Source: a virus. Taken from it: a stretch of 64,000 nt of DNA. The notes beneath the pieces are model-generated. The model did no database searches, was not told where the DNA came from, and worked only from the letters and a program-made list of their open reading frames with translations. A program made the position numbers and the translations under genes. Below, piece after piece: positions 1 through 55,444 of the stretch (positions are counted from its first letter, which is position 1; each line of letters begins with the position of its first letter). The DNA lies in IMG/VR virus record IMGVR_UViG_3300045988_181101, one strand, 5' to 3'.

Positions 1-364
1 AGTCTCTTATATCCTCACTTACAAGACTCGATATTCTACCTATATCATCTTTAAAACCTAATAAATAAGTTTTATATTTTCCTTGATAGAAATCATTATA
101 TTTCTTCTGAGCTATCCAAGGATATGGAGCTTTAATAAAACAATAGGGTCCTGTAATTTTATAGTAATAAGGATTTTGTTTAATAGAACCTACTAAGAAA
201 ATGGTAGGTTCTACAGATTCTATTTCAAAAGCTTCAATTGGATGAAGTATATGATAATCCATAATTTTTCTTGTTGAACGAGCTTGATGTTCGTTAACTT
301 TTTCGTAAATCATTCCATTGTAAGAAAAGAATTCTCCTACTTTAAGATTTTTAAATAATATCAT
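1..364 (-). CDS. hypothetical protein, 3' part beyond left window edge
   Basis: ATG at 364 (cat 362-364). 121 codons are open to base 1 (MILFKNLKVGEFFSYNGMIYEK...). Absent from the ORF track because there is no stop in the window. Same strand as all neighbours. Confidence 0.5.
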   Translation of the reverse strand, partial: MILFKNLKVGEFFSYNGMIYEKVNEHQARSTRKIMDYHILHPIEAFEIESVEPTIFLVGSIKQNPYYYKITGPYCFIKAPYPWIAQKKYNDFYQGKYKTYLLGFKDDIGRISSLVSEDIRD

Positions 365-408
365 ATCAATATAATTTTAATAATTAGAAGTTCTTTGATG
401 TGTACTGT

Positions 409-627
409 TCATAATCTATTCTTACATATTTGTTTCAACCTCTCTAAATCTTTTCGTTTAGGCTCGTCTGCATTCTTAGTAGCGTCTATTATTGTCATAT
501 CGCTAACTATTGCAATCCATTGTTTTCCCGTTACAGGACTTGTATAAGTTACTTTATAGTGTCCATAACCTGATTGGATAAAATTAAAATTTGAAAGTTG
601 TGTCTTTGTCTTCATAATCTTTATCAT
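409..627 (-). CDS. hypothetical small protein (72 aa)
   Basis: ATG ORF immediately downstream of promoter-repeat copy A. Its first codons (MIKIMK) lie inside the repeat and are shared with the ORF at 8380-8535. Confidence 0.5.
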   Translation of the reverse strand: MIKIMKTKTQLSNFNFIQSGYGHYKVTYTSPVTGKQWIAIVSDMTIIDATKNADEPKRKDLERLKQICKNRL

Positions 628-714
628 TTTTAGTTGTCCTTTTTCAATACCTAAAGATACTCCTTATTTTGGAGATAACAAACGTTTATCTATATTTATG
701 GTCGAAATTAAGGA
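613..714 (-). promoter_or_regulatory. family-1 promoter/operator repeat, copy A
   Basis: On the minus strand: TTTG (682-679), 19-nt spacer, TATCTTTA (659-652), then the conserved leader AAAGGACAACTAAAAATG. The 50-100 nt block recurs at 8521-8603, 18681-18771 and 30681-30758. The spacing matches the Bacteroides -33/-7 promoter architecture. Confidence 0.6.
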
Positions 715-721
715 CTTTTAA

Positions 722-754
722 TAAAACTCTAACAATCTCTCTAAGTCAGGAAGC
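722..754. repeat. inverted repeat IR-L of putative invertible segment
   Basis: TAAAACTCTAACAATCTCTCTAAGTCAGGAAGC. The exact reverse complement is at 1547-1579. Identity ends on both sides (721/1580 and 755/1546 mismatch). Confidence 0.9.
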
Positions 755-1154
755 TGGAGAAATAACGCGAGTAACAATATCAGATGCATTAGTGTCATAT
801 GGAACTATTTATGGTTATCTAAATAGTCCTGAAGGACCTTCGGTAATAATAGGTGAATTGAAAAATTATATGCTTGTATCTTCAAGAACGTATGGATATA
901 CGTTCAAAGCAGTTGGTAGTGGAAATGTATCAATATCATTGAATTTAATCTTAAATACTAAAATATCATCACATACTGTAACGGAAGCTACAGGAGGAAT
1001 AACTGCTGACAAAATGTTTATTGTACAATCTACATCCGGAAGTATAATTACAATTAGGTTTGATAATTCTCCAAGTGGTGCAACAATTTCATCCAAAGTT
1101 TATTTTGAAGGATATATAAATCCTATATTAATGGACTTTACAATTGAACGTTAA
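723..1154 (+). CDS. silent alternative C-terminal cassette for the fibre gene 1210-2613 (no start codon of its own)
   Basis: Only substantial plus-strand ORF not antisense to a better minus-strand ORF. It begins with KTLTISLSQEA, encoded by IR-L in the same frame as in the fibre gene. There is no ATG near its 5' end (the track start at 669 is TTG inside the promoter repeat). 143 codons are open in AT-rich DNA, ending just before the 40-bp palindrome. Confidence 0.65.
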   Translation, partial: KTLTISLSQEAGEITRVTISDALVSYGTIYGYLNSPEGPSVIIGELKNYMLVSSRTYGYTFKAVGSGNVSISLNLILNTKISSHTVTEATGGITADKMFIVQSTSGSIITIRFDNSPSGATISSKVYFEGYINPILMDFTIER

Positions 1155-1166
1155 TAATTAATATAT

Positions 1167-1206
1167 TACATAATAGTCGGGTAAAATTTTACCCGACTAT
1201 TATGTA
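1167..1206. terminator. 40-bp perfect palindrome, bidirectional terminator candidate between the two convergent cassettes
   Basis: The left arm TACATAATAGTCGGGTAAAA (1167-1186) is followed directly by its exact reverse complement TTTTACCCGACTATTATGTA (1187-1206). It lies between the stop at 1154 (+) and the stop at 1210 (-). Confidence 0.6.
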
Positions 1207-1209
1207 CTC

Positions 1210-2613
1210 TTAATAAATGGTTAATGTTATTTCATCATAAGAGTTGCCTAATTGTATTGTTCCTGTAACTTTACCATCTCTATTTGTATATCTATAATTT
1301 TCAAAATCTGTACTACTTGAAAAATTACCACTTATGCCAACTGGAGGATAATCCATATCATCAAGAAAATGAATTTCACATTCCTCACATTGAGGTTCAA
1401 GAATAAGTTCTCCTCCTAAAGGAACATATAAATTTTCAGAAGTATATTGTTCAATTCGACCACTTGCATCATCTGTAAACCATTTTATTATCGGTGATCC
1501 TCCTTGAACGACATCAAACATAACACTAATAAATACTAATACTCTTGCTTCCTGACTTAGAGAGATTGTTAGAGTTTTACCACTGCTTTGTTGAGAAAGA
1601 GTAAGGGTACCTGTTCTTTGGAATGCAGCAAGATTATTTGCAGCTACTATATAGATTTCACTTGTATCATAGGAAGAAACAGAGAATGTACTATCTCCAC
1701 TAATACTTGGTGTATATGGAACTGCTGCTACTTCTGTAGTTGGATTACCATTTATATATTTTCGTCTTATTGAATTTACTGCTATTCTTTTTGTTTCACC
1801 TGTTGCTATAAAGGAAAGACTTGTAGTAGCTGATGTAAATTCATGACCCCATGTAATAGAAGCTGCAGCCTGAGTAACACTAACAGTAAAAGTATTTCCA
1901 CTAACACTCTGAGTAAAGACAACACTCCAACTTCTTGAACTTTCAACAACATTTTCTGTTACAGAGAAAGTCGTTCCTGATACAGTCAAACCTCCTTCTG
2001 GAGAAGATGATGAATAATCAAGATTTTCAGTACCAACTTGATGTCCATTAATATACTTCGTTCTATAAGAAGTAACTGAAATAGATTGACTATTTGCTGT
2101 CGCACCAAATGAAAGACTTGTTGTTGATGGTGAGAATGTATAAGTATAAGTAGGAACTCCTGCAGCCTGAGTAAAGTTCACAGTAATTTCTTGGTTAGTA
2201 ACAGACTGTTTAACACGAATATAACCTGATTTCTGTGATTCTGTCGTTTGATCTGCATTAGCATGTACTGAAACTGAATTTCCACTCACAGAATAAGTTG
2301 CCCAACTTGCATTGAATTCTGAAACTGACCAAGCAAGAGCTTCACCTCCAATTGTAGAGGTAACAGTAAAACTTTCACTACCAGTATTCTGAGGTAATTG
2401 AAATGAAGTTCTACTTACACTAAATGCAGCCTCAGCATATATTACATTATCCATAATAGGAATAGCAACATCTGAATAACTTCCCTCTATTCTTGCAAAT
2501 GGAGAAGTATCTAAGATTTCTTTTTTTGTTAGAAATCTATCTGCACCACTACCACTCGGGAATTCAGGTATTTTATTATGAACGAGATTTCTCGTTGCAA
2601 ATTCTTTACTCAT
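1210..2613 (-). CDS. tail fibre / receptor-binding-type protein with BACON-like Ig repeats; C-terminal 111 aa lie inside the invertible segment
   Basis: 467 aa, ATG at 2613. Three tandem ~90-100-aa beta-sandwich-type repeats each end in ...TV(N/S/T)(F/V/L)(T/S)Q(A/E)A. The first resembles BACON (W..S....W.......GNS..V.......). IR-R sits at codons for KTLTISLSQEA. Confidence 0.6.
   Translation of the reverse strand: MSKEFATRNLVHNKIPEFPSGSGADRFLTKKEILDTSPFARIEGSYSDVAIPIMDNVIYAEAAFSVSRTSFQLPQNTGSESFTVTSTIGGEALAWSVSEFNASWATYSVSGNSVSVHANADQTTESQKSGYIRVKQSVTNQEITVNFTQAAGVPTYTYTFSPSTTSLSFGATANSQSISVTSYRTKYINGHQVGTENLDYSSSSPEGGLTVSGTTFSVTENVVESSRSWSVVFTQSVSGNTFTVSVTQAAASITWGHEFTSATTSLSFIATGETKRIAVNSIRRKYINGNPTTEVAAVPYTPSISGDSTFSVSSYDTSEIYIVAANNLAAFQRTGTLTLSQQSSGKTLTISLSQEARVLVFISVMFDVVQGGSPIIKWFTDDASGRIEQYTSENLYVPLGGELILEPQCEECEIHFLDDMDYPPVGISGNFSSSTDFENYRYTNRDGKVTGTIQLGNSYDEITLTIY
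1547..1579. repeat. inverted repeat IR-R of putative invertible segment
   Basis: Exact reverse complement of 722-754, inside the fibre CDS. Confidence 0.9.
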
Positions 2614-2647
2614 ATCATTAATCTTATATAAACGAATAAAAACAATC

Positions 2648-3085
2648 TTATCTATAAAGTAATTCGTGAAGAGTCAGATCTTTTTTCCTTCTTATAGAAA
2701 CATTCATATATTTAGGAAAGTCAAGATTTTCTTCATTTAAAAAGTCAACGAATACTTGCCATGAAATCATATAAACAGAACCACAACGAAAATCCATCTT
2801 ATACATTTTCCATAAAGGTTTATCCTCTTTAATAGAAATACATTTCAAAGGATCTTGTTCATCATTAGATTTAAAGTTCTCAACAAGTTTCATCTTACCA
2901 AACCAAGAAATATTATATCCAGGAATAAGAACAAGAATATCTTCTTTAGGATATTCAAGATATTCCTCAATTATCTTTACTTCTTCATCAGAGATAAGCA
3001 TTCTATCTTTAATTTGAGAAAGGTATAGACGAAATCCTTTCATTTCGTCTACTACCCAATTATAACCTATTTTATAAGTACTCAT
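2648..3085 (-). CDS. hypothetical protein (145 aa)
   Basis: ATG ORF, minus-strand tiling, no recognisable motif. Confidence 0.55.
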   Translation of the reverse strand: MSTYKIGYNWVVDEMKGFRLYLSQIKDRMLISDEEVKIIEEYLEYPKEDILVLIPGYNISWFGKMKLVENFKSNDEQDPLKCISIKEDKPLWKMYKMDFRCGSVYMISWQVFVDFLNEENLDFPKYMNVSIRRKKDLTLHELLYR

Positions 3086-3087
3086 AA

Positions 3088-3312
3088 TTATAGAATTTCT
3101 TCATTTTTATTCCATTCTTCATTATTCAGGACGCTACCAAGTTCTCTACTGTTATGTTCGTAAACCGTTAGTTTATCCTCGTCAGTCAACACAGGATGCA
3201 CAAAGTCATAATGAAGAATAACCTTACTTCCGTTCACACTCTTACGCGCATGCTCAGGTACTACTATTCCCTTTTGCAAACACCATTCTACTGTTACAAT
3301 TACATATTTCAT
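3088..3312 (-). CDS. hypothetical protein (74 aa)
   Basis: ATG ORF with a 4-nt overlap with the upstream gene. Confidence 0.5.
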   Translation of the reverse strand: MKYVIVTVEWCLQKGIVVPEHARKSVNGSKVILHYDFVHPVLTDEDKLTVYEHNSRELGSVLNNEEWNKNEEIL

Positions 3313-13731: not shown

Positions 13732-14304
13732 TTAATTATTGTCTAAAGATACTAACTTATCTATCGTTTCAGCAAGTTGTTCTATCACATCACTATTTAA
13801 ATTTGAGTCGCTCAACGACTTTAATATTAATGCTTCTTTCATTCCCTTGTAGGCGATGTAGCATTTACTTTCGTTTATAATAGGAGTAGGATTGTTGGTT
13901 AATCTTTCTATCTCTCGTTCAAGCTCGTTAAGTTTCTCAGCCTGTTTGTCGATTACATAATTAAGTTCATCAATCTTCTTGTCCTTTGCGCTTAATTCTA
14001 TGATAAGTCTATTACATTCATTTTCATCTTCTTTCTCTTCAATAGGTTTACTCACTTGCATCTTATTAGCATTCATTTCTTTAAATTCTTGTAGTATCTT
14101 TTCTTTTTCTTCGTTTGATACTCGACCTTTACCTTTATTCCTTTCAATTAGTGAACAATTAGTTAACTTCACTTGAACCTTCTTATCCTCTAAAGTGTTA
14201 ATTAGTGCATTACCGTCTTTAAATGATATTACTGTTCCACCATTTAAGTTTCCTTCATGATCCTTGTATTTAACAAGACTTCCTACTTTAATACTTTGTG
14301 CCAT
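13732..14304 (-). CDS. hypothetical protein (190 aa): small beta-barrel-like N-terminus + coiled coil
   Basis: ATG ORF overlapping the sigma-factor stop by 17 nt. Central heptad-rich region (KKIDELNYVIDKQAEKLNELEREIERL). Confidence 0.55.
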   Translation of the reverse strand: MAQSIKVGSLVKYKDHEGNLNGGTVISFKDGNALINTLEDKKVQVKLTNCSLIERNKGKGRVSNEEKEKILQEFKEMNANKMQVSKPIEEKEDENECNRLIIELSAKDKKIDELNYVIDKQAEKLNELEREIERLTNNPTPIINESKCYIAYKGMKEALILKSLSDSNLNSDVIEQLAETIDKLVSLDNN

Positions 14305-14791
14305 ACTCTTTTATAATTTTCTTTCTTATGTGATGTATTTTACTCTTTACTGTTCCTAAAGATATTTCAAGTATCTGTGCTATCTCTTCGTAGAGGTATC
14401 CATTATAATAACCTAAGAAACACCTCTTGTCTACAATTGGTACATTAATACTATCTATTATCTTTATTAGGTCTTCATATTCTCCTGTCCAAAACCTCTC
14501 TTTACTTTCACATCTATCCTTGATGAACTCTTTATCTTCTTCATCGTACTTTTGGTCCTGTCTATTTGATTCCTGTCTATACTTATTGAGGAACAAATTT
14601 CGTATAATAGTCGCAATCCATTTTTCACAATCTTTCTCGTTACCACTAAACTGATTGTATTTGCTCAACGCATTTAGAACAGCTTCTTGTGCGATATCTT
14701 GTGCTTCTTCTATATTACAAGTCAACTTTAGTGCATAACAATAGAAGAACTTGTACTTCTTTTGGACTACTTCTTGTATTATTTCTTTCAT
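14288..14791 (-). CDS. sigma-70 family (ECF-like) RNA polymerase sigma factor
   Basis: Region-2-like AQDIAQEAVLNALSKYNQF...W...IIRNLFLNKYR. Region-4 HTH YLYEEIAQILEISLGTVKSKIHHIRKKI. Confidence 0.75.
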   Translation of the reverse strand: MKEIIQEVVQKKYKFFYCYALKLTCNIEEAQDIAQEAVLNALSKYNQFSGNEKDCEKWIATIIRNLFLNKYRQESNRQDQKYDEEDKEFIKDRCESKERFWTGEYEDLIKIIDSINVPIVDKRCFLGYYNGYLYEEIAQILEISLGTVKSKIHHIRKKIIKEYGTKY

Positions 14792-31441: not shown

Positions 31442-31963
31442 TTAAAAATTCATTCTACGTCCATATTCAGCCATAAGTAAACTGTCAGAAAAGTTATCAT
31501 CTTCATTCTTACATTTATTTGTTCTTCTAAGATCTACAGTAGGAAAAATTCTATGAGAAGCTAAGAAGCTCATTTTCTTTGTATCAATAACTTGAGTTTT
31601 ACCTGTTGTAGAAGGTTTTGTTATCACATTAATTCCTCTAAACATTTCTTTTTGCCAAATCTTGGGATTTACTTTTGTATAAGGTAACCCGATTGTAGCA
31701 ATAACACCTTCGATTAATCCTGCTATAAATCCAAAGTTAAATGTTCCTTTTGCTGAACTACCGAAAATTGCGTGTATATTCTCAATTATAACATGACAAT
31801 TATCTTCATACTTAGAAAGGTTTAATAATGTATTACTTATTTCGACTGCATCTACATTTTTCGCATTTTTCAATAAAAAAAATGATTCTATGAATTTTCC
31901 AGTTTCATCTACAATCGAGATACAACCTTTAACACCGGGGTCTATACCTATATAATATTTCAT
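31442..31963 (-). CDS. RuvC-like Holliday junction resolvase
   Basis: YIGIDPGVKG, IIENIHAIF and G...G.I......LPY..V.P..WQK follow the RuvC acidic-residue layout. Confidence 0.6.
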   Translation of the reverse strand: MKYYIGIDPGVKGCISIVDETGKFIESFFLLKNAKNVDAVEISNTLLNLSKYEDNCHVIIENIHAIFGSSAKGTFNFGFIAGLIEGVIATIGLPYTKVNPKIWQKEMFRGINVITKPSTTGKTQVIDTKKMSFLASHRIFPTVDLRRTNKCKNEDDNFSDSLLMAEYGRRMNF

Positions 31964-34900
31964 ACTTCTAATCTACTTACTCCATTTTCTTTAATAACGC
32001 GAATTTGACTAATTTCTTCATTCAGTTTTGGTACATGAGTAACTATAAGAATAGGTTGCTTGAAGAAACTTATAGAAGTTGTAATATTCTCAATACCAAG
32101 TGAATCTACACTTTCCAATATTTCATCTATAAGTAAGAATTGCATTCCACCATATTTCTTAGTAGTGTTGATCATTGATTGAAGAGCAAGTATAAGTGCT
32201 ATTTCACAACGTGCTTTTTCACCTTCAGAGTAAAATGTAAATAATTCCATTTCATCTCTAAAAATGTAAGGTGTAATTTCTTCTTTAAGTTTACCGTTTG
32301 CACCTTTCTTAAAACCTTCAATCATTAATCTTAAATCACTACCCATTTTCTTTAAAATATCATTAGCAGAAAATTGAATATTCTTCAACTGTTCCATTGC
32401 AAGATACATTTTAAAATCCTTGAAACGTTGAGTCCATTGATTTATATTGAAAATATCATTTGTTTTATCTTCTATTTTTGAAGCAATTTTAGAAATAGAT
32501 TTGTTTATACTTTCTATTCGTTTTTCAATATTAGATGTATCTTTTTCTTTTAATGGTTCTTTTAAAATTTCTTGAATAAGTTTTTCTTTATGTTCTATTG
32601 TCTCATAAGCTAACTCAACTTCAACTTTACCTGATTTTAAATTCTTATTCAATTTTAAAATCTGTGTATCAATAGTATCAATTGATTGAATTACGGTATT
32701 TAATTTATTTTTAATTGATCGTTGTGATTGTAATATAGAGTTTTCTTCATTTTCAGTCTCCTTTCTTAGAGAGTTATATTCTTTTATAACTTCATCTAAA
32801 TCTATTACAATTTGATTACATTCATCCTTTTCTTCTTTTTCTTTTTCAATAGAATTATTACACTTATCCTTTTCTTCTTTTAATTCGTCAATATTTTTAT
32901 CACATTTAAGAAGGAATTCGTGATGACATTTAGGACAAACAATCACACCTGACAAGATATTATCTATAGAATTAAGAGTTGATTTCAATTCCCTTATTCT
33001 ATCATTATGTTTATCAATTTCCTTTTCTGTAGACCTTTTATCTTCTTTATATTGATTTAAATCTTTATCAATTTCACTATATACTTCTTGAAATCTATTT
33101 AAATCAATAGACGATAATTCTTTTTCAACCTTTTCTTTTATTTTTTCAAGATCCTCTTTCTCTTTAAATTTATCCTCGAGATCCTTTTGATAAGAACCTA
33201 ATAAAATTTGCAAATCTTGAGTCTTATGATCAATTTTCTGAATTTCTTGTCGAATCTCTTCAATTCGCTCATTTCTTTCAGCTTCTTGATCTTTAGAATT
33301 TTCTTGTTCTAATTGTTCTTCATATACAGAAAGTTTGCCTGTCAATAAAGATTTTTCATCTTCTAATGAACGTTTTTCTTCAGTTATTTCATCAATTTTT
33401 TCTATAATAACATCCTTCGTTTTATCAATCTTTGAAAAATTGATAAAACGACTTATAAGAGCCAATTTTTCAGTATTAGATGCTTTAAAGAAAGAATTAT
33501 AATTATCTTTTGTTACAATATAATAAGATTTAGCATCTTCTGCAGAAATTTCAATCCAATTAGATACATATCTATTTCCATCAAGAACTGTAGCACAATT
33601 TACTGGTGTAACCTTTTCATTTTCATCAATCAAAGATAATCTTAATGTAGACGAACCTTTTATACGTATTTCTCTTTCTATAGATAGAGTTTGTTTACGT
33701 ATAGGGCAATATATTTGAACACAAGTATAAGCTACATCAAATCCATATCGAATCAACTTTTTATCTACATTTCCACGTAAATTAACACCGTAAATACCAT
33801 AAAATAAACCTTGACCAAAAAATGAATTATGTGTAACAATAAAATTGTTGGTTAAATATAATCCATCTTTATTAGAAACGGTAATACATTGCATTTCTTC
33901 TTTTCCAACATATTGAATATCAACAATTCTCCGATCAACACAGTTCATTTTCTTCTCTTGCATCAATCTTTCAGATTTTCTTTTCAGATGAAAAAGATCA
34001 AGTCCTTTAGGAGGAACAATTCTTAACCGATAACTATCCTTACATTGAATTTTCTCTCCTTTTTTATTCTTATAAGAAGATTTTAAATGAGAAACTTTAT
34101 GACATAGACAACCGAGACTTCTTGCTATAAAAGCAACGTCTTCAATTAATTGTTTAGAAGTTAAAGTTAATTCTACCTTTCCTCTTTTATCAACATATCC
34201 GTCTGTATCTAAAAGGCCTCTAAGAAGTTCAAGTCTGACTTCTTTATTATTGTACATGTATTCCTTCGGAATAAATTTTTCAGAAGAATAAAGTCCAAAT
34301 AAATTATATTTTTCTAAGATCTTCCAAAAAGCATCTTCTTGATTTTGAACTTTATTAATACGATAATCAAGTTTATTTGATGATTGAACTAATTCAAATT
34401 TTTTATAAAAATTCAATCTATTTACAATCTCTTCGTCAGGTGAAGTAAAACCAATAATTTTTTGTGTAAATCCTCCATCACCTAACAAAGCTCCTAAGGT
34501 GTAGGGGTCAATATCGACTTTTTGATAAGGATAATCTATACAATCGACTGTTGGCACTCTATATCTATAAGGATTACTATTTCCACAATTACATTGTATA
34601 GATTGTTTCATTATATCTTTAAGCGATTTTATAACCCATTTCTTAGGAGTATAACATGAAGCAACTTTCCATAGATGCTCGTTATTACATTTGACTTTTG
34701 TTCCATCATTGAATGTAATTTCGTAACAATCAATGATTCCTTGAGGATGAATCGCTACTACTACTTGTTCTTTTCCATCAGAACCTAAAATTTTAGTTCC
34801 AATTCTAACATCTCTCATTTTTATAGATCCGGATAATGTCATAATATCAGAATCTAAACTCTGCGCTTTACCTCCACCATTTGAAAGTTGATCATCCTGA

Positions 34901-35001
34901 GTTCTATTCTCTCCTATTACAGCAATAGGTTTGTGTACAAAATCATAATCAAGAGATTCAAATGGACCAAAATTCTTTAATACTAATCTTCTTGGATACA
35001 T
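31960..35001 (-). CDS. sbcC: SbcC/Rad50/gp46-type recombination ATPase, interrupted by an intein
   Basis: N-extein ends ...LSNGGGK and C-extein starts SFFGQGLFYGIYG, which restores NGGGKS. A long coiled coil follows with a CPKCHH zinc hook. C-terminal signature/Walker B is LLIDEILESVD. Confidence 0.8.
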   Translation of the reverse strand: MYPRRLVLKNFGPFESLDYDFVHKPIAVIGENRTQDDQLSNGGGKAQSLDSDIMTLSGSIKMRDVRIGTKILGSDGKEQVVVAIHPQGIIDCYEITFNDGTKVKCNNEHLWKVASCYTPKKWVIKSLKDIMKQSIQCNCGNSNPYRYRVPTVDCIDYPYQKVDIDPYTLGALLGDGGFTQKIIGFTSPDEEIVNRLNFYKKFELVQSSNKLDYRINKVQNQEDAFWKILEKYNLFGLYSSEKFIPKEYMYNNKEVRLELLRGLLDTDGYVDKRGKVELTLTSKQLIEDVAFIARSLGCLCHKVSHLKSSYKNKKGEKIQCKDSYRLRIVPPKGLDLFHLKRKSERLMQEKKMNCVDRRIVDIQYVGKEEMQCITVSNKDGLYLTNNFIVTHNSFFGQGLFYGIYGVNLRGNVDKKLIRYGFDVAYTCVQIYCPIRKQTLSIEREIRIKGSSTLRLSLIDENEKVTPVNCATVLDGNRYVSNWIEISAEDAKSYYIVTKDNYNSFFKASNTEKLALISRFINFSKIDKTKDVIIEKIDEITEEKRSLEDEKSLLTGKLSVYEEQLEQENSKDQEAERNERIEEIRQEIQKIDHKTQDLQILLGSYQKDLEDKFKEKEDLEKIKEKVEKELSSIDLNRFQEVYSEIDKDLNQYKEDKRSTEKEIDKHNDRIRELKSTLNSIDNILSGVIVCPKCHHEFLLKCDKNIDELKEEKDKCNNSIEKEKEEKDECNQIVIDLDEVIKEYNSLRKETENEENSILQSQRSIKNKLNTVIQSIDTIDTQILKLNKNLKSGKVEVELAYETIEHKEKLIQEILKEPLKEKDTSNIEKRIESINKSISKIASKIEDKTNDIFNINQWTQRFKDFKMYLAMEQLKNIQFSANDILKKMGSDLRLMIEGFKKGANGKLKEEITPYIFRDEMELFTFYSEGEKARCEIALILALQSMINTTKKYGGMQFLLIDEILESVDSLGIENITTSISFFKQPILIVTHVPKLNEEISQIRVIKENGVSRLEV
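33826..34866 (-). mobile_element. intein (347 aa) with LAGLIDADG homing-endonuclease domain, class-3-like
   Basis: Residues 46-392 of the ORF: starts AQSLDSDIM, ends FIVTHN|S. LAGLIDADG motifs are LGALLGDGGF and LLRGLLDTDGYV. Block B is NNEHLW and block F is MQCITV. Confidence 0.75.
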
Positions 35002-35963
35002 AACATCTTTTCTTTAACAGATTCGTTAATTTCATCAAACAATTCTTTATCTTGTAATAAAGCTTCTCTAACATTATCCATTCCTTGTCCTAATCGATAA
35101 TCATCGCCATAATAGAACCAAGCTCCTTTTTTCTGACACAAACCAAGTTTTACAGCAAGTTCTACTGTTTCTTGAACTATATCGAATCCGACTCCAAATC
35201 TCAACATTACTTCACACGTTCTTAATGGAGGAGCTATCTTATTTTTAACTATCTTAATTTTAGTCTTATTAGCTACTGCTATATCTCCACTTTTATCTGT
35301 GCTGATTCGAGCAAACTCGACTCTTTGTGTAGAATAAAATTTAAGAGCTTCACCACCAGGAGTTGTTGTTGTAGGTCCAAAACCAAAACCTCCATTAATT
35401 TTTTGTCTCACTTGATTAATACATAATAGAATGTTTCTATTCTTATTACATATGTTCTTGAAAATTCCTAATTGTGCAGACATTAATCGAGCAATCAATC
35501 CAATCTTAGCATCACCAACATCACCTTCAATTACACATTGAGGAACAAGACCTGCTACTGAATCAAGAACAACAATACCTATCTCAGGTTCTTCTAATCC
35601 TAAACGAACAGCTTCAAGTGCACTTTCTGCAGTATCAGGTTGAGAAAGTAGAAATTTATTTTGATCTAAATCAAGTCCTATTTTCTTAGCATATTCAAGA
35701 TCTAAAGATTGTTCTGTATCAACATAAAATACAGCTTTACCTCTTTTTTGCACTTCCTTACATAAATGTAATGCAGCAGTTGACTTTCCTGATGATGGTG
35801 GTCCATATATCTCATGTATACGAGCATTTGCAAAACCTCCTCCAAGAACTTCGTCAAAAGCTAAAGATCCTGACGAAATTGTTTCCACTTCTATTTTCTT
35901 CGTCACAACAATACCTTGTCCTAATCTTTTTTCAATAGTTGATAAAAATTTATCTAATGCCAT
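34983..35963 (-). CDS. recA: RecA-family recombinase
   Basis: SGSLAFDEVLGGGF, Walker A GPPSSGKST, Walker B VVLDSVAGLVP, plus L1/L2-type loops. Confidence 0.85.
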   Translation of the reverse strand: MALDKFLSTIEKRLGQGIVVTKKIEVETISSGSLAFDEVLGGGFANARIHEIYGPPSSGKSTAALHLCKEVQKRGKAVFYVDTEQSLDLEYAKKIGLDLDQNKFLLSQPDTAESALEAVRLGLEEPEIGIVVLDSVAGLVPQCVIEGDVGDAKIGLIARLMSAQLGIFKNICNKNRNILLCINQVRQKINGGFGFGPTTTTPGGEALKFYSTQRVEFARISTDKSGDIAVANKTKIKIVKNKIAPPLRTCEVMLRFGVGFDIVQETVELAVKLGLCQKKGAWFYYGDDYRLGQGMDNVREALLQDKELFDEINESVKEKMLCIQED

Positions 35964-35965
35964 AA

Positions 35966-37012
35966 TTATAATACTTGTTCTAAAATAGTTAATCCTTTTT
36001 CATAAGAATAATCATTCTGTTCACAAAAAATCTTAAACTTATTGATAATATCAGAATTAGTAAGAGTTTTAATTTCAGATACTTCTGCTTCTTCTGAAAT
36101 CTCTTCAATTTCTTTAGCTTTCATCTTTACATCAATACCAAGTTCTGTATAAACTTTCTTATCAATAGATTTGAGCTCATCCTGATTACCTTTAAATTCT
36201 ACTCTCAAAAGATTATCAGGATTTTCATCTTTAAACATTTTAACAATCTTATTAACTTGTTTGAGAGTCGTTACACTTAAATCAATAACAATCTTTCTAA
36301 ATTTCTTTCCTTTCGAAGGAATCAGATCATAAGTCAAATCATCGTAAATGATCCAAAATCCTTTATTTTCGTCTTCACCAAAATTATTTTGAGTCAATGA
36401 TCCAAGATGAACGAATTTTTCTCCAACTTCTTGATAATCGTGAAAATGACCTTGAAAAGTCATATCAAAATCATCAAATGTCTTTAGACTTAATCTATTT
36501 TCTGTTACATGACCAAGATTCTTACTTCCTGTTATAGCAATATGTCCTAAACAAACAAGTTTATCTTTACTATCCTTTTCATCTTGAATACACTCAATAA
36601 GTTCATCAAATCTTTCTACCCAAATATCTTCATCATAATAAGCAATACATCCAAATAAAATATCTCCTATTCTAACAATATCTATATCATCAATGAGTTT
36701 AAAATTAGGATGATGTTTAAATGGTTTAAGAAAAGAATCTGAACTTTTATAATCTGATGAATCGTGATTTCCTCTAATACAAATCAATTCTATACCAGCT
36801 TTATCGTAATGATCTAAAATCTTATCCCAAGAAGATAGAACAACTTGTTTTTGACTTATTCTTGAATCAAAAACATCACCAAGACAAAAACATTGTTTTA
36901 AATTGTTAGTTTTACAGATATCAATACCTTGTTTTATCAATAATTCTTCAATTTCTTGATAATTAGATTCTTTTAAATGAATATCTGTAAAAATCATTGT
37001 GAGTGGTTTCAT
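35966..37012 (-). CDS. sbcD: SbcD/Mre11-type nuclease (calcineurin-like phosphoesterase)
   Basis: Phosphoesterase motifs TDIHL, GDVFD, GNHD and GH.....H.H, located adjacent to sbcC. Confidence 0.8.
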   Translation of the reverse strand: MKPLTMIFTDIHLKESNYQEIEELLIKQGIDICKTNNLKQCFCLGDVFDSRISQKQVVLSSWDKILDHYDKAGIELICIRGNHDSSDYKSSDSFLKPFKHHPNFKLIDDIDIVRIGDILFGCIAYYDEDIWVERFDELIECIQDEKDSKDKLVCLGHIAITGSKNLGHVTENRLSLKTFDDFDMTFQGHFHDYQEVGEKFVHLGSLTQNNFGEDENKGFWIIYDDLTYDLIPSKGKKFRKIVIDLSVTTLKQVNKIVKMFKDENPDNLLRVEFKGNQDELKSIDKKVYTELGIDVKMKAKEIEEISEEAEVSEIKTLTNSDIINKFKIFCEQNDYSYEKGLTILEQVL

Positions 37013-47105: not shown

Positions 47106-47750
47106 TTATTTATGATTAATTTTCCAAATTTGGATTTGTCTTAAAAACTCATCTCGACTATTCATAGAATTATCTAAAAATAATCCTGAACAATAATTTG
47201 TTACCATAGAAGAGTTATCTTCTGCGCCTCTCATACTTACACACATATGTTCAGCTTCAATATAAACAGCAATTCCTCTAACAGAATCACCGAACACTTC
47301 TTTAAGATAATCATGAATCTGTTTTGTCAACTGTTCCTGAAGTTGAGGTCTTTTTGCAAACCAATGAACAATTCTATTTAATTTAGAAAGTCCTACGACA
47401 TCTCCGCCTTCTTGTGGAATGTAAGAAATGTGGCAAACTCCGCAAAAAGGTAAAAAATGATGGCTACACAATGAATTAACTTCAATACCCATTTCTGTTA
47501 CCATCCCTGTATAACCAGTTCCTGGGAACGTTGCAATTCTTGGTCTTTCTTCATAAACTCCTGAAGTAATTTCATTTACCATCATCTTTGCAACACGATA
47601 AGGAGTTTTTACCATATTAGGATCATTCTTCCAATCATATCCTAATGCTTCAAGAAACTTACCGTAGGCTTCTTCTGCATTTTTCATCATTTCCTCTTTT
47701 CTTTCTTTAGAAAGAACAATGTTTTGACCTGCTTTTAATTTAAAATCCAT
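47106..47750 (-). CDS. folE: GTP cyclohydrolase I
   Basis: CSHHFLPF, RPQLQEQLT and EAEHMCVSMRG match the FolE type I active-site motifs. Confidence 0.9.
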   Translation of the reverse strand: MDFKLKAGQNIVLSKERKEEMMKNAEEAYGKFLEALGYDWKNDPNMVKTPYRVAKMMVNEITSGVYEERPRIATFPGTGYTGMVTEMGIEVNSLCSHHFLPFCGVCHISYIPQEGGDVVGLSKLNRIVHWFAKRPQLQEQLTKQIHDYLKEVFGDSVRGIAVYIEAEHMCVSMRGAEDNSSMVTNYCSGLFLDNSMNSRDEFLRQIQIWKINHK

Positions 47751-47774
47751 ATTATTTATTCCTTTCTTTTTATA

Positions 47775-49073
47775 TCAAACTCCTCTTTTTGTTCCCCAAA
47801 TTATAATTTGCAATCTATCTGAATAGTGATATCCATGTTCAGCACAATATTCTGCTACCATTTGTCTTTTTTTCAATAATTGTTCTTCATTGATACCTTC
47901 AGGCATTAAACAAACAGAACCTTTTTTAGGCTTCAGCTCTTTCAAAAGATTTTCAATTTCTTCAAAATCTTCTCTTTTTGATACAACAAACTTTAACTGA
48001 TAATTTTGAGCATATTTCATCCATTTTTTAAAATTATCAATTCTAATTCTATTCTTTTCATGAATATTTTCATACTTAGTTCCTATTGGAGTAGAATCTC
48101 TTAATTTAGGTGAAATTGATACTAAATCTATCATTTTCATTAAAGATTCGTCTAAACAAACAGTTCCATTTGTTTCTAAAGTTATAAGTTTCTTATTATT
48201 TTTAGCAATAATTATAAGTTCTTCAATTCTATTGGAAATGCAAGGTTCGCCTCCAGATAAAACGATGTGTCTTATTAATGGGTTTTCTTTGATAAGATTT
48301 TTAACGTCTAAATTGGAATAAGAACCTTTTTCCGGTTTCCAAGATGTAAATGATGTATCACACCATCTACATTTTAAATTACATCCTATCGTTCTAATAA
48401 ATAAAGAAGGTATTCCTGCATATCTACCTTCACCTTGAATTGATTTAAATATTTCTGAAAGATATTTTTCCTCAAATATTTCTTTCTTTAAAAATTCGAC
48501 TAATTCTTCAACATTATTCGGAACTTTTGCTCCTTTAGAATCATTTTCTTTTGCCCATAACGGTTGTAAATTCCTGTAATTGAAACAGATACGTTGATTC
48601 TCCTCTTTTGTTAAATCAAAATAAGAACAAGGAATAATATGATCGACATGCCATTTTCCATAATTATCCCAACTCATTCCTTCTTTAAATTGAGATTCAA
48701 GATGTCGTTTTAAATGTTCGATTGAACAACCAAGAAGATCGAGTGTATGTGTCGATTTTCGATTGTTTTTACATTTTAAAGCATTATAACAACGAGACCT
48801 TAGAATTTGAGTTAAATTCAAATTTAAATTATTTTTAACCTTTTCTCGTCTTTTTCTATCGTCTTCTTTGGCATATCCTAAAACTCGTCTTCTTATTGTC
48901 TGCTTTCTTTGAATTCTTTTACCACTTTCAGAACGATTAAATTCACTTTTACATTTTTTACAATAATTTTCTAATCCATCGTTTGAAGATTTATTTTTTC
49001 GGAAACAATCTAATGATAATTTCTTTTTACAACGACTACAAATCTTCATTCCTTTTTCAAAATCAGCTTTCAT
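47775..49073 (-). CDS. queE: in-frame fusion: HNH homing endonuclease (family copy 4, ~aa 1-200) + 7-carboxy-7-deazaguanine synthase QueE (~aa 203-432)
   Basis: N-terminus CSRCKKKL...DGLENYCKKC ... HVDHIIP...CFNYRNLQPLWAKEN. It continues without stop or Met into SEIFKSIQGEGRYAGIPSLFIRTIGCNLKCRWCDT ... LQIIIWGTKRGV, a radical-SAM QueE including the typical C-terminus. Confidence 0.85.
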   Translation of the reverse strand: MKADFEKGMKICSRCKKKLSLDCFRKNKSSNDGLENYCKKCKSEFNRSESGKRIQRKQTIRRRVLGYAKEDDRKRREKVKNNLNLNLTQILRSRCYNALKCKNNRKSTHTLDLLGCSIEHLKRHLESQFKEGMSWDNYGKWHVDHIIPCSYFDLTKEENQRICFNYRNLQPLWAKENDSKGAKVPNNVEELVEFLKKEIFEEKYLSEIFKSIQGEGRYAGIPSLFIRTIGCNLKCRWCDTSFTSWKPEKGSYSNLDVKNLIKENPLIRHIVLSGGEPCISNRIEELIIIAKNNKKLITLETNGTVCLDESLMKMIDLVSISPKLRDSTPIGTKYENIHEKNRIRIDNFKKWMKYAQNYQLKFVVSKREDFEEIENLLKELKPKKGSVCLMPEGINEEQLLKKRQMVAEYCAEHGYHYSDRLQIIIWGTKRGV

Positions 49074-49078
49074 TATTA

Positions 49079-49672
49079 TTATTTAATTTGTTTTTCTACT
49101 TTAGGATTAATAAAATATTTTCCATCAGATTCTTTAGTATGACGAAAGAAACTATGTAATTCTTCTGACCAATCATTTAATACACCAACAGAATAAGCTG
49201 TAGATAAATCTACAGGAAGTAAATCAAAATCATTTATTGTTGCTTCAGCATAACCTGTTGCAGTTTCATGATAAATTACCTTATTACATTTTACATTCCC
49301 TTCGCCATTATTAAATTCTGTTGCTTTAATCATTGCATTAATCATATAACAAATATACAATGCAAGATTTTCAGCAGAAGGACTTATAGGAAGTTCAATC
49401 CAACGATCGCACCATTTTTTCATATCGTTCTTATATTCTTCCTTGTCTTTATTCCAAATCAGCATACAATGATCAAAAGAATCGATCCATTGTCCTATAT
49501 TTTTCTTAATCAAAGAGAAATCTACAATCATTCCTCCATTATCAAGTTTATCTGAAGTTAAAAATACTTCAATGACTGCTGAATGACCATGAATACTTTT
49601 TCGACAACGATTTGTTGAACAATTGCGTACAATATGCGCTCCTTCAACTTTAAATAATTTTCTAATCTGCAT
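49079..49672 (-). CDS. queD: 6-carboxytetrahydropterin synthase (QueD family)
   Basis: FKVEGAHIV....C...HGHSAVIEV (the C-x3-HGH zinc motif), 197 aa. Confidence 0.8.
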   Translation of the reverse strand: MQIRKLFKVEGAHIVRNCSTNRCRKSIHGHSAVIEVFLTSDKLDNGGMIVDFSLIKKNIGQWIDSFDHCMLIWNKDKEEYKNDMKKWCDRWIELPISPSAENLALYICYMINAMIKATEFNNGEGNVKCNKVIYHETATGYAEATINDFDLLPVDLSTAYSVGVLNDWSEELHSFFRHTKESDGKYFINPKVEKQIK

Positions 49673-52705: not shown

Positions 52706-55444
52706 TTAAATCAAATTTATTCCTACTTGAACTTCTTTCTCACACTCTCTCAACGAGTTAATCGAAATAAAGGTACTCATACAAACATCATCGTGTCCCG
52801 AAGCAGCTTCAAGTTTACCATTATCACTTTTAAACGTTATAGATGAGAATTCACCAAACATTAAGTCAACTGCTTGTCTCGTTTCTCCTACAGCATAAGG
52901 ACATTTTAATTGACCTCTTTCAAACATTGCTGAAAGACTTGGTAATCCTGTATAAAGATCCTTCTTATTTCCTTCAGTCGTAGTAAAAGTTTCAATATTT
53001 TTCAATCCTCTTTCTCTTGCTAACGCAGATAATATGGACTGAAATCCGTTTGATTCACATACAATTTTATTAGGTCTAAATAATCTATCAAGTTGAACAA
53101 TCTTATCTATCTGCTCATTATGAGACATTCCTTTTTGTCTGTAATAAGTAAGTAGATAATAATTCTTCATTGAATCAATACCCCAAACTGAATATACAGT
53201 ATAGTCTGCACCAATATTACCTGAAACAGCAAAGTCTACACCTATATGAACTCTTTGTAATTTTATAGGATAATCATCTATAGATGTAGCGAATCTTATA
53301 TTTTCCATTCCTACAGTTGATCTCATCAAATATTCATAAGGAAATATTGTAGATGAATCACTAATAGGTACTACAAGATACTCACGATTAAACACGATTG
53401 TTCCAAGTTCTTCTCTCTTTGCAAGAATCTGATCAAACGTATATCTATCAGGAGCAAGTGGTCTACCATCAGGAAATATAACTGGATATTCAAAACAGTA
53501 AAATCGCTTATCAGCTTTCAATACTTGATATAATTCATTTGGTGCAGAAGAATATGGTGTTCCACAAACAATAAAATATCCATAAGGCTCTACGATAGGC
53601 TCAATTGTTCCTTTTAGAAGTTCTTTAAGTTTTTCTCTTTGTTCGTCTGAATATAAAGAAGATTCATCAGGCATATCATCACATAATACAGCTCCTACGT
53701 GTAGACCGCGAATGAAACCATCGCGACCACGAATATGTAATGTGCTTCCTGTTTCAGTTGTTATACCTGTTTCTCCAATAGATGCTTTACCATTTGGATT
53801 AAGTTTCTCAGCTATCAAATCATTTGTTTCAATTTCCTCTCTTACTTTTTTAATCTGAACTTTCGCAAGTGTCATCGTAGATGTGATATAACACGTTTCT
53901 TTTCTGTTTTGATTATCTACAGTATTTTGTCTCCAGGGAACAGGTCGACAATAACTCCATAATCTCCAAAGAATAAATGCATAAGACCACATATAACTAT
54001 TATGAACAACAGTTCCATCACTGAGTAGAAATTTATGATCACCATCTAAAGCAAATCCATAATAGTCTCCTTCTCCTGCTTGAGTAATAGTTAAAGCTGA
54101 TTTATTACCTTGTTGAACTTTATCATATTGTTGAGCTTGCTTTCTCTTTACTTTAGTAGGTATTGTCCAAATTTTACCGGATATATAAATTCTGTAGAAT
54201 TTATAATTTTTATAACTATATTCACCAATTTGTATATTTTTTCTCACATGTGTTTCTATAGAAGTACATTGAAATCCAAGTGACAAAGCAAGATAACGAA
54301 TTTGTTCTATAAGCTCATATTTCTTTAAAGATAATTCAAACGAACATGAATTTCTCGAAGTTCCTTTTCGTTTTAAATATTTTTGTTCATTTAAATGACC
54401 GTCCGAATCCAAGATACCTGCTAATAATTGAAGTCTCTGTTGACGAGAACCTTTCATATAAACATCAGGAATATGCTTGTTTTGAATTAAATTCAAATCT
54501 CTCAATTTAGATGATAAATCTACTCCGGAAATTCCGTTTAACATTTCTTTTTCTTTATAAGAATATTTTCCTCCTATCCTTTTACTATATTCTTTAATTG
54601 CATTTCTTACTTCTATATCCGGATTTGTTATGTAATAATTGCAATTCGTACCATCACCAAGCCAAAGTCCAAGCCAATATGGATCAATAGAAAGTTCTTT
54701 TTCAGGAAGTTCCCATCCATCAATCTTTCTGTATCCAAAAATTTTCTTCCGACCATAACCTGCATGTTTAGGGATGTCTTCAACAGGAATGTCTTTATAA
54801 ATTCTTTTTGTTACTCTTTTATTATCTATTGTTGTTGGTCGATCCCAAATACAACAAACCAAATGACCTTCATTCACATAATAATCTTTAGCATAAGTTT
54901 GATGAACTTTATACATCTGCGACCGACCTCTATGAAGTTGAAGAACTGTTCTTGGAGTATTATCTATTCCCATCACTTGATCTCCAACTTTAATATCTTG
55001 AACAGGCTTTAAAGAACCATCATACATAACTACTAACTCGTTGATACTGAGACATTTACCTGAACCGCGACCACAAAGATAACAGCTCCACGGAAACAGT
55101 TGTGTCATATTACCCCATTCAACATTTCTCCAACCCATCCTAAAATTAGGGAGCATTGTCAAAATGAAGTAATTCAATGAATAAATCTTCAAAGTTGTAT
55201 CCATTGAAGCTTTTACATTCTCTATATAATCAAGACTTTCAGAATCAAGTGTTCTACCAAGATACAGTGTTTTTTCAGTTTGAGTAAGTATTTCCTTTAA
55301 CATTTTATCAACATCATTATTATAACCTTCAAGAAGTTGATTTAATGCTTTAGGAGATAGATCCTCAATTATTTTATCTACAGTATCATATAGATAATTC
55401 ATTTGATTTACTGAAAGTAAATCTTTACCATCTAATGTTAACAT
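52706..55444 (-). CDS. terL: terminase large subunit, interrupted by an intein
   Basis: Exteins restore Walker A CGRGSGK|S. Walker B is AVLCDDMPDE. Nuclease motifs are HIGVDFAVSG..ADYTV, CESNGFQ and GHDDVCMS. Confidence 0.8.
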   Translation of the reverse strand: MLTLDGKDLLSVNQMNYLYDTVDKIIEDLSPKALNQLLEGYNNDVDKMLKEILTQTEKTLYLGRTLDSESLDYIENVKASMDTTLKIYSLNYFILTMLPNFRMGWRNVEWGNMTQLFPWSCYLCGRGSGKCLSINELVVMYDGSLKPVQDIKVGDQVMGIDNTPRTVLQLHRGRSQMYKVHQTYAKDYYVNEGHLVCCIWDRPTTIDNKRVTKRIYKDIPVEDIPKHAGYGRKKIFGYRKIDGWELPEKELSIDPYWLGLWLGDGTNCNYYITNPDIEVRNAIKEYSKRIGGKYSYKEKEMLNGISGVDLSSKLRDLNLIQNKHIPDVYMKGSRQQRLQLLAGILDSDGHLNEQKYLKRKGTSRNSCSFELSLKKYELIEQIRYLALSLGFQCTSIETHVRKNIQIGEYSYKNYKFYRIYISGKIWTIPTKVKRKQAQQYDKVQQGNKSALTITQAGEGDYYGFALDGDHKFLLSDGTVVHNSYMWSYAFILWRLWSYCRPVPWRQNTVDNQNRKETCYITSTMTLAKVQIKKVREEIETNDLIAEKLNPNGKASIGETGITTETGSTLHIRGRDGFIRGLHVGAVLCDDMPDESSLYSDEQREKLKELLKGTIEPIVEPYGYFIVCGTPYSSAPNELYQVLKADKRFYCFEYPVIFPDGRPLAPDRYTFDQILAKREELGTIVFNREYLVVPISDSSTIFPYEYLMRSTVGMENIRFATSIDDYPIKLQRVHIGVDFAVSGNIGADYTVYSVWGIDSMKNYYLLTYYRQKGMSHNEQIDKIVQLDRLFRPNKIVCESNGFQSILSALARERGLKNIETFTTTEGNKKDLYTGLPSLSAMFERGQLKCPYAVGETRQAVDLMFGEFSSITFKSDNGKLEAASGHDDVCMSTFISINSLRECEKEVQVGINLI
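53999..55054 (-). mobile_element. intein (352 aa) with LAGLIDADG homing-endonuclease domain, class 1
   Basis: Residues 131-482: starts CLSINELVVMYDG, ends DGTVVHN|S. LAGLIDADG motifs are LGLWLGDGT and LLAGILDSDGHL. Confidence 0.8.

Follow-up and report, generated by a model that had tools for sequence, protein, structure and literature searches.

A recurrent DNA inversion that exchanges the C-terminal tip of a predicted surface protein in large gut phages lacking a recognized invertase

Architecture of the locus

The 64,000-nt stretch of the IMG/VR virus record IMGVR_UViG_3300045988_181101 belongs to an uncultivated human-gut phage and contains, near its beginning, a gene for a predicted surface protein of 467 aa (1210–2613, minus strand), the 3′ part of which lies in a DNA segment bracketed by an inverted repeat. 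This stretch, at its full length, is referred to as the window, and all coordinates are those of the window unless another genome is named. The two arms of the repeat, 722–754 (plus strand; distal arm, IR_D) and 1547–1579 (its reverse complement on the minus strand; proximal arm, IR_P), are perfect over 33 bp and enclose 792 bp (755–1546), as proposed in an earlier note made from the sequence alone; extended to 43 nt, the repeat retains 91% identity. It is the sole inverted repeat of this kind in the window, against an expectation of 0.00 in 100 shuffles. Each arm encodes the peptide KTLTISLSQEA in frame. The proximal arm is located within the expressed gene, where it specifies residues 346–356, and the distal arm, identical over the 33 bp, forms the start of a silent cassette.

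The expressed gene thus consists of a constant part (aa 1–356; 1546–2613, minus strand) and the 111-aa tail A, allele A1, which is followed by a stop codon (1210–1545, minus strand). On the opposite strand, the distal arm heads an open reading frame (ORF; 669–1154, plus strand) that encodes the 132-aa tail B, allele B1, likewise closed by a stop codon (756–1154). Of the 46 ORFs in the window that reach 150 aa, no other is on the plus strand; ahead of the repeat this ORF offers TTG as its only start option. As the earlier note had described, it has no ATG or promoter of its own, and tail B is unrelated in sequence to tail A. The tail B allele is silent in the window and expressed in the related genome L004, in the public protein P0008 and in others. 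The invertible segment accordingly carries two alternative tails, which converge on a perfect 40-nt palindrome (1167–1206). The palindrome is 94–100% conserved among relatives and folds with −26.5 kcal/mol on one strand (z = −6.6) and −27.4 kcal/mol on the other (z = −7.6). A simple terminator scan made no call at this site, which lacks a T-tract; its hairpin energy makes it a candidate orientation-independent terminator.

An intergenic element of ~45–85 bp (611–694) lies directly outside the distal arm, upstream of a 72-aa gene (409–627, minus strand). Further copies with 84–95% identity are found in the genomes of relatives (e.g., L001:975–1058 and L006:4645–4714), and the element may be a repeated promoter or regulatory sequence.

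The surface protein and its tips

In the AlphaFold model, the constant part begins with an N-terminus of ~60 aa that is predicted with low confidence and is conserved in relatives, followed by three immunoglobulin (Ig)-like, BACON-like beta-sandwich domains (residues 61–355; predicted local distance difference test, pLDDT, about 90); the tail comes last. For tail B, the model shows a confident all-beta domain (pLDDT 75–92). The repeat encodes the final beta-strand of the third Ig-like domain, so that the exchange takes place at a domain boundary. The BACON label attached to the protein in the earlier note holds for its homologues P0044–P0051, which carry PF13004, as does the neighbouring 496-aa protein; the 467-aa protein, for its part, stays below the threshold, with a match of 18 bits (E = 0.003) versus a cut-off of 25. 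In the PDB, a Foldseek search with the whole B-form model recovered nothing more specific than generic tandem-Ig proteins; its best matches in BFVD were gut-phage proteins annotated as ‘BACON/binding domain’. PHROGs, NCBIfam and PDB searches with the whole protein and with the neighbouring ORFs of 72, 137, 127 and 395 aa were uninformative. An A-type tail is also present at the end of the distant protein P0044. Identification of the protein as a fibre is plausible and a capsid-borne adhesin is a possible alternative; the tips have a putative receptor-binding role.

Relatives with 66% identity encode a 392-aa orthologue that stops after the Ig repeats and has neither tail nor repeat. L019, a member of a sister species that lacks the switch, has an AT-rich inverted repeat of 21 bp (1067–1087/2641–2661) on either side of the whole orthologue; this repeat is similar to the sequence upstream of the fibre start codon. 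Strains also differ in how many Ig domains make up the shaft, as one 99-aa Ig-like domain (window 1863–2186) is tandemly duplicated in some of them, yielding 587-aa forms (L003, L008 and proteins P0035–P0039); two contigs end inside the duplicated repeat.

Both orientations occur in near-identical phages

Inversion of the segment was expected to fuse the constant part in frame to the alternative tail, and this fusion is indeed encoded by a close relative. Searches of IMG/VR and human-gut metagenomes with the constant part as query yielded species-level relatives. One of them, L004 (ERZ831601, a 102.7-kb contig), is collinear with the window on both sides of the locus, with 99.6% and 96.4% identity in the flanks. 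Over 858 bp, from arm to arm with both arms counted, L004 matches the window at 99.07% identity, yet in inverted orientation. Alignment of the four junctions of the two genomes reveals an exact reciprocal exchange with breakpoints inside the 33-mer: the gene of L004 combines the constant part with tail B, giving a 488-aa protein, and tail A lies silent behind the distal arm. The segment with the window's alleles is also inverted in L112 and L113, and the exact protein of the window is encoded on a 105.4-kb scaffold from another sample.

The orientation survey covered 14 genomes, in 12 of which both arms are visible. Among carriers of the cassette pair (A1,B1), tail A is on in the window, L009 and L114, whereas tail B is on in L004 and L112; L113 has B1 on, with its silent cassette lying beyond the contig. 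The pair (A2,B2) is found with B on in L001, L002 and L005, and the pair (A2,B3) with B on in L006 and A on in L007. A third tail type, C, is on in L090 and L091, which carry the pair (C,B3). Finally, L093 has A2 on together with an (A2,B2)-type repeat allele, and its silent cassette is also beyond the contig. In the matrix of single-nucleotide polymorphisms (SNPs), the A-on genomes (window and L114) are placed between the B-on genomes (L004 and L112), with 2–4 SNPs separating the two states versus 6 between the B-on pair. Orientation is thus discordant with phylogeny, and the data imply at least two flips within the group of window, L114, L004 and L112 and at least four over the 14 genomes.

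The same picture emerges from public proteins. Exact look-ups and homologue searches yielded ~20 A-form, 50 B-form and 2 C-form member sequences, and 356-aa constant parts are identical between an A-form (P0002) and B-forms (P0009 and P0015). The hypothetical flipped chimera of the window itself has no exact match in the protein collection, in which near-identical B-forms are present. A word-indexed protein search with the 143-aa B cassette returned no match despite the presence there of near-identical 488-aa proteins; this result was discarded as a false negative, and negatives of word-indexed searches with short queries should be regarded as unreliable. Overall, we consider it very probable that the locus undergoes real, recurrent inversion that swaps the tip of the protein.

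Silent cassettes and selection

The earlier note had suggested that relatives lacking the left repeat, or carrying it in decay like a dead gene fragment, would speak against a switch. No such decay is seen in species-level relatives, which retain near-perfect arms and an intact silent tail: all eight silent cassettes (8/8) are open and of full length. The ratio of nonsynonymous to synonymous substitution rates (dN/dS) is 0.3–0.6 within one tail type and ~1 between the B1 and B2/B3 alleles, a pattern that fits fast-evolving binding domains and not pseudogenes. The intact silent copies and the common occurrence of both states suggest that the switch is kept by selection.

A truncated form of 359 aa, with a stop codon 3 aa past the repeat, is encoded in L092 (4850–5040; cluster P0041, with 11 members, all from Logan assemblies). 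Within the B3 tail of this contig, a stretch of ~185 bp has been inverted and has lost part of its sequence; the junctions share no more than a TATA microhomology. This form is either a real degenerate variant or an artefact of minimal assembly.

Phage genome and search for a recombinase

The genome circle measures ~103–105 kb, has a GC content of 29.7% and encodes a myovirus, as judged from the tail sheath, Baseplate_J and tube initiator genes, along with an intein-containing terminase, portal, MuF and capsid proteins, tail genes, a DnaE-type polymerase, helicases, ligase, RNase H and ribonucleotide reductase. It has no integrase, and the phage is apparently non-temperate. The nearest cultured relatives by capsid protein are DAC-type phages of Bacteroides, with 35% identity, and megablast of positions 1–3100 against 50,697 GenBank phages gave no match. 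We also looked for the Bacteroides promoter consensus TTTG..TAnnTTTG as evidence of the host, but dropped it, given that the 7 occurrences found versus 3.9 expected do not amount to enrichment.

Neither precomputed annotations nor direct scans yielded a Pfam match to Resolvase, Recombinase or Phage_integrase on the genome circle, including the 10 kb on either side of the segment; the absence of a serine or tyrosine recombinase, previously reported for the window, thus extends to the genome. The repeat arms themselves do not resemble known recombination sites. Their longest internal dyad-symmetric pair is 5 nt, a length reached by 66% of shuffles, and motif scans of the window for hix half-site and core patterns, the Mpi consensus ARACGTWCGT and the BV01 motif found none, in agreement with the earlier impression that the repeat is unlike hix/gix or Mpi sites. 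The recommended search for further copies of the repeat, conducted with its 21-nt core, produced 0 matches in 185,579 representative bacterial and archaeal genomes (GTDB).

The segment is adjoined, just past window position 1, by a lineage-specific block of three genes, orf137, orf127 and orf395 (L004:7403–9799). The block is limited to this species and the sister species L016–L019, and is missing in 63 distant relatives with conserved flanking genes. We considered orf395, which has no match in Pfam, PHROGs, NCBIfam or PDB, as a hidden invertase and rejected it as the leading candidate: copies with 81–83% identity are present in L016–L019, which lack the repeat and all three tail types (A, B and C), and the gene is absent from a second cassette-bearing phage lineage described below.

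Genes for general recombination are present. The phage encodes RecA (34983–35963, minus strand; PF00154, E = 2.7e-73), an adjoining SbcD/Mre11-like phosphoesterase (35966–37012, minus strand; Metallophos, E = 3.5e-11) and a probable SbcC/Rad50-like ATPase (31960–35001, minus strand) with a weak SMC_N match, split by an intein with a LAGLIDADG endonuclease. We take this set to be the functional equivalent of UvsX and gp46/47 of phage T4.

Several other features of these genomes deserve mention. Besides the SbcC-like ATPase (31960–35001), the terminase large subunit (52706–55444) contains an intein/Hint element; in relatives, such elements are found in the DnaE polymerase (L011:12496–15051) and as a free-standing Hint-like ORF of 139 aa (L014:10964–11383). 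In the sister species L016–L019, an insertion of ~440 nt interrupts the gene for a 316-aa protein that lies downstream of the portal gene. Genes for FolE (GTP cyclohydrolase I), QueE (radical SAM) and QueD (PTPS) are consecutive at 47106–49672, which suggests 7-deazaguanine modification of the phage DNA. Furthermore, the phage encodes a sigma-70 family factor (14288–14791) with Sigma70_r2 and r4_2 domains.

The same layout in a second phage lineage

An unrelated group of siphovirus-like gut phages, with genomes of ~33–41 kb, displays the same layout behind a BACON protein of 701–712 aa at the end of the tail module, where the homologue follows right after the tape-measure and tail genes. In L094 (7345–9207), an A-type tail is expressed and a B-type cassette is silent and inverted; the repeat spans 336 nt at 90% identity, with a 180-bp perfect block at its outer end. 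L095 (7345–9549) carries two silent cassettes, with repeats of 336 nt and 99 nt (95%), whereas the relatives L096 and L100 have no cassettes. The repeats occupy other positions in the gene than the 33-bp arms of the window, and no recombinase adjoins the cassettes. Flipping may also occur in this lineage.

Repeat arms and mechanism of the flip

Across the surveyed genomes, the arms are perfect over 32–35 bp in 11 of the 12 cases in which both are visible; L090, with one mismatch, is in a transient state. Three repeat alleles are distinguished (CTAACA, CTATCA and CTCTCA), and in all 12 genomes the same allele is present on both arms. For instance, L006 and L007, as well as L090 and L091, share cassettes but differ in the repeat allele, and the arms are nevertheless matched within each genome. 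Such homogenization of the arms would be expected from heteroduplex repair in the course of homologous recombination, but not from a fixed crossover site. Likewise, the variation of the repeat in length, sequence and position between lineages fits a homology-dependent process. In E. coli, the minimum substrate of RecA-type recombination is ~23–27 bp. Two hallmarks of homology-driven flip-flop are found at this locus: the arms are at least as long as the minimal substrate and evolve in concert, and general recombination genes are present with no dedicated recombinase recognized.

On this basis, we propose that recombination between the arms inverts positions 755–1546 and so would join the 356-aa constant part in frame to tail B, in place of tail A, with the symmetric hairpin at 1167–1206 terminating the transcript in each state. 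Most likely no dedicated invertase makes the flip, which probably occurs by homologous recombination during replication, with either the RecA/SbcCD-like machinery of the phage or that of the host at work; the phage RecA would be the candidate catalyst, and gene conversion would keep the arms identical. A phage population would then hold two kinds of virions and, across strains, different combinations drawn from A1/A2, B1/B2/B3 and C. Differing tips on a surface adhesin or fibre would most likely serve as a hedge against the variable glycans of the host surface. To homologous recombination without a dedicated invertase as the driver of the flip, we assign an even chance. The explanation as a whole, a recurrent, tip-swapping inversion switch that probably operates by homologous recombination, appears to us somewhat better supported than that, as the best account of the data. 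Slightly short of even, and put forward tentatively, is the broader proposition that this non-temperate phage runs an invertase-free programmed switch, in which a minimal 33-bp in-frame repeat is homogenized by gene conversion and the phage's own RecA/SbcCD-like machinery makes the flip, and that the unrelated phage group follows the same principle with 99–336-nt repeats and up to three cassettes. If so, the principle would be a general bet-hedging strategy of Bacteroidota phages with respect to tropism, independent of recombinases and diversity-generating retroelements.

Several observations weigh against this explanation or parts of it. With respect to the mechanism, an arm of 33 bp is not much longer than the shortest substrate of RecA-type recombination, so that low rates are conceivable. 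The repeat ends sharply on its outer side and keeps a length of 32–35 bp across strains, both of which would also suit a site recognized by a protein. Most of the phage ORFs lack a family assignment, leaving room for a novel recombinase, and the survey for recombinases includes ~1.5 kb of the circle, with three small genes, that was seen only in a more distant relative. With respect to the inversion, the two orientations were compared between assembled genomes and may coexist within one phage population; no pair of orientations was found within the same sample, P0008 and P0002 are from other samples and their contig ends do not coincide with the repeat. With respect to the function, structure prediction for the two C-termini, as advised in the earlier note, succeeded for tail B but left tail A poorly modelled (pLDDT 43–68), and PHROGs, NCBIfam and PDB sequence searches detected no informative homologues of either tail. 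Finally, the gene is located outside the baseplate module, between small ORFs and the genes for the holin, a BACON protein and the portal.

Alternative explanations

The same switch might be flipped by a site-specific recombinase acting in trans, either an invertase of the host, which probably belongs to the Bacteroidota, or an unrecognized ORFan of the phage. The sharp edge and the conserved length of the repeat would suit such an enzyme, yet the arms show neither dyad symmetry nor an Mpi, hix or BV01 motif, their positions 10–11 covary, which is unexpected for a fixed crossover site, and the length and position of the repeat differ by lineage (33, 99 and 180–336 nt). Bacteroidales do carry many globally acting invertases (PMC9881135), but the repeat core is found in none of the 185,579 genomes searched. 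As for a phage-encoded enzyme, the many ORFs without a family match and the lineage-specific orf137/orf127/orf395 block next to the segment are potential sources; however, the whole genome gives no match to a recombinase family, and orf395, itself without a family match, has a distribution that does not track the switch. We therefore regard a recombinase acting in trans as unlikely, although deserving of attention.

Alternatively, the two orientations could be a static polymorphism produced by rare past inversions and by cassette exchange between co-infecting strains, with the second cassette a mere leftover. Cassettes, repeat alleles and constant regions are indeed reassorted among strains, so recombination between strains is frequent, and dN/dS is ~1 between B1 and B2/B3. 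However, at least four independent flips among 14 genomes, at only 0–4 SNPs in the constant region, are difficult to reconcile with rare events, and leftover cassettes would not be expected to remain intact in eight of eight cases in a genome with 30% GC, where stop codons arise easily. The identity maintained between the arms, the frame-preserving design and the symmetric hairpin also suit a working switch, and we consider a static polymorphism very improbable.

More doubtful still is the possibility that the silent ORF has its own start at the TTG at 669 and yields a small protein, for example a decoy or chaperone; the two tails would then be produced simultaneously, and inversion would only determine which of them is tethered. 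Gene callers annotate a gene of 151–161 aa here, and its leader lies outside the invertible segment and is hence the same in both states. Nevertheless, the ORF has no ATG, and its leader ORF differs in length from genome to genome and overlaps the region upstream of the next minus-strand gene; furthermore, among the minus-strand genes of the 64 kb, no other plus-strand ORF reaches 150 aa. That the repeat misled the assembly can practically be set aside: repeats can have this effect, and the Logan contig L092 has a scrambled B tail, but metaSPAdes and MEGAHIT finish with k-mers longer than 33 bp, the reading frame continues across clean junctions, and both orientations recur across independent samples, assemblers and databases (IMG/VR, ENA, JGI and Logan) on contigs of >100 kb.

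Significance

DNA inversion allows gut Bacteroidota to diversify their capsules and surface proteins, a variation with which their virulent phages have to keep up. The known answers on the phage side are diversity-generating retroelements and, very recently, the recombinase-dependent shufflon of temperate BV01-like phages. The locus described here adds a third route, namely an inversion switch carried by a large phage without an integrase or a recognized invertase. Should the flip be driven by homologous recombination, surveys that demand a nearby recombinase would miss such switches, and inverted repeats that are short, in frame and adjacent to a gene tail without a promoter would provide a searchable signature in viromes; the same design, simple and portable, could be used to swap tips in engineered phages. 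With both junction sequences at hand and the public samples named, the ratio of orientations at this locus is measurable from existing metagenomes.

Comparison with known inversion systems

The G segment of phage Mu and the C segments of P1 and P7, inverted by Gin and Cin, endow a phage population with two adsorption specificities. The locus in the window resembles these systems in that a repeat-bounded invertible segment supplies a constant N-terminus with one of two convergent C-termini. Unlike in Mu, P1 and the e14 element with its Pin invertase, no serine invertase gene (Resolvase, PF00239) adjoins the segment or is found elsewhere in the genome, and the arms are 33-bp coding sequences without the dyad-symmetric 26-bp organization of hix, gix and cix. 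The segment is also shorter (0.8 kb versus 3–4 kb) and contains no chaperone gene of the U/U′ type; the protein is an Ig/BACON-repeat protein, not an S-type fibre as in Mu, and it is carried by a large, apparently non-temperate gut myovirus without an integrase. The resemblance to Mu and P1, put forward in the earlier note together with shufflons, therefore lies in the logic of two tails exchanged by inversion: the locus is not a member of the Gin/Cin family and is no shufflon of the Rci or BV01 type.

Among shufflons, the closest in setting is that of the tail fibre of BV01-like Phocaeicola phages, which has a flanking recombinase, 10-bp core sites TGGGAGAACT and three cassettes (PMC13596623, a 2026 preprint). 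In both cases, C-terminal cassettes are switched in a phage of gut Bacteroidota, the protein concerned in BV01 being a carbohydrate-binding tail protein, and the two silent cassettes of L095 in the second lineage are reminiscent of BV01, R64 Rci and p15B Min. However, the window has two arms and two cassettes, in contrast to three or more cassettes separated by short cores such as the 19-bp sfx sites of Rci or the TGGGAGAACT sites of BV01, it does not contain the BV01 motif, and its genome lacks a tyrosine recombinase (Phage_integrase, PF00589) such as that of the Rci shufflon. Among the host invertons of Bacteroidales (Mpi/Tsr), those of the Mpi type differ as well: their consensus is absent from the window, and the repeat core was found in none of the bacterial and archaeal genomes searched.

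Homology-driven flip-flop is exemplified by the genome isomers of plastids and herpesviruses. In cyanophages, segments of ~30 kb are reported to flip without a recombinase between repeats of 400–700 nt (bioRxiv 10.64898/2026.02.14.705889). The window shares with this type of flip-flop uniform, identical arms, the presence of both isomers in close relatives without phylogenetic signal and, probably, the dispensability of an invertase. It differs in that the cyanophage repeats are hundreds of bases long, with no known recoding, whereas the 33-bp repeat of the window is intragenic and yields two isoforms of a protein.

Gene-altering programmed inversions of bacteria, including those in prophage tail fibres, typically show enrichment of a recombinase nearby (Milman et al., 2023; PMC9881135), and intragenic invertons arise by inversion between repeats in coding sequence (PMC10028968). 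As in these cases, a specificity gene would be recoded in the window by inversion between coding repeats; unlike the bacterial chromosomes and prophages covered by those surveys, the window represents a free phage genome without a recombinase. A metagenomic tool published in 2026 reported 16 putative viral invertons, the detailed example being a capsid gene of Microviridae, not a tail gene (PMC13501310), and no description of this locus or phage group was found in the literature searched. The logic of swapping C-termini by inversion is known already from Mu G and P1 C; here it is found in a large gut phage that has neither an integrase nor a recognized invertase, and it is probably driven by general recombination.

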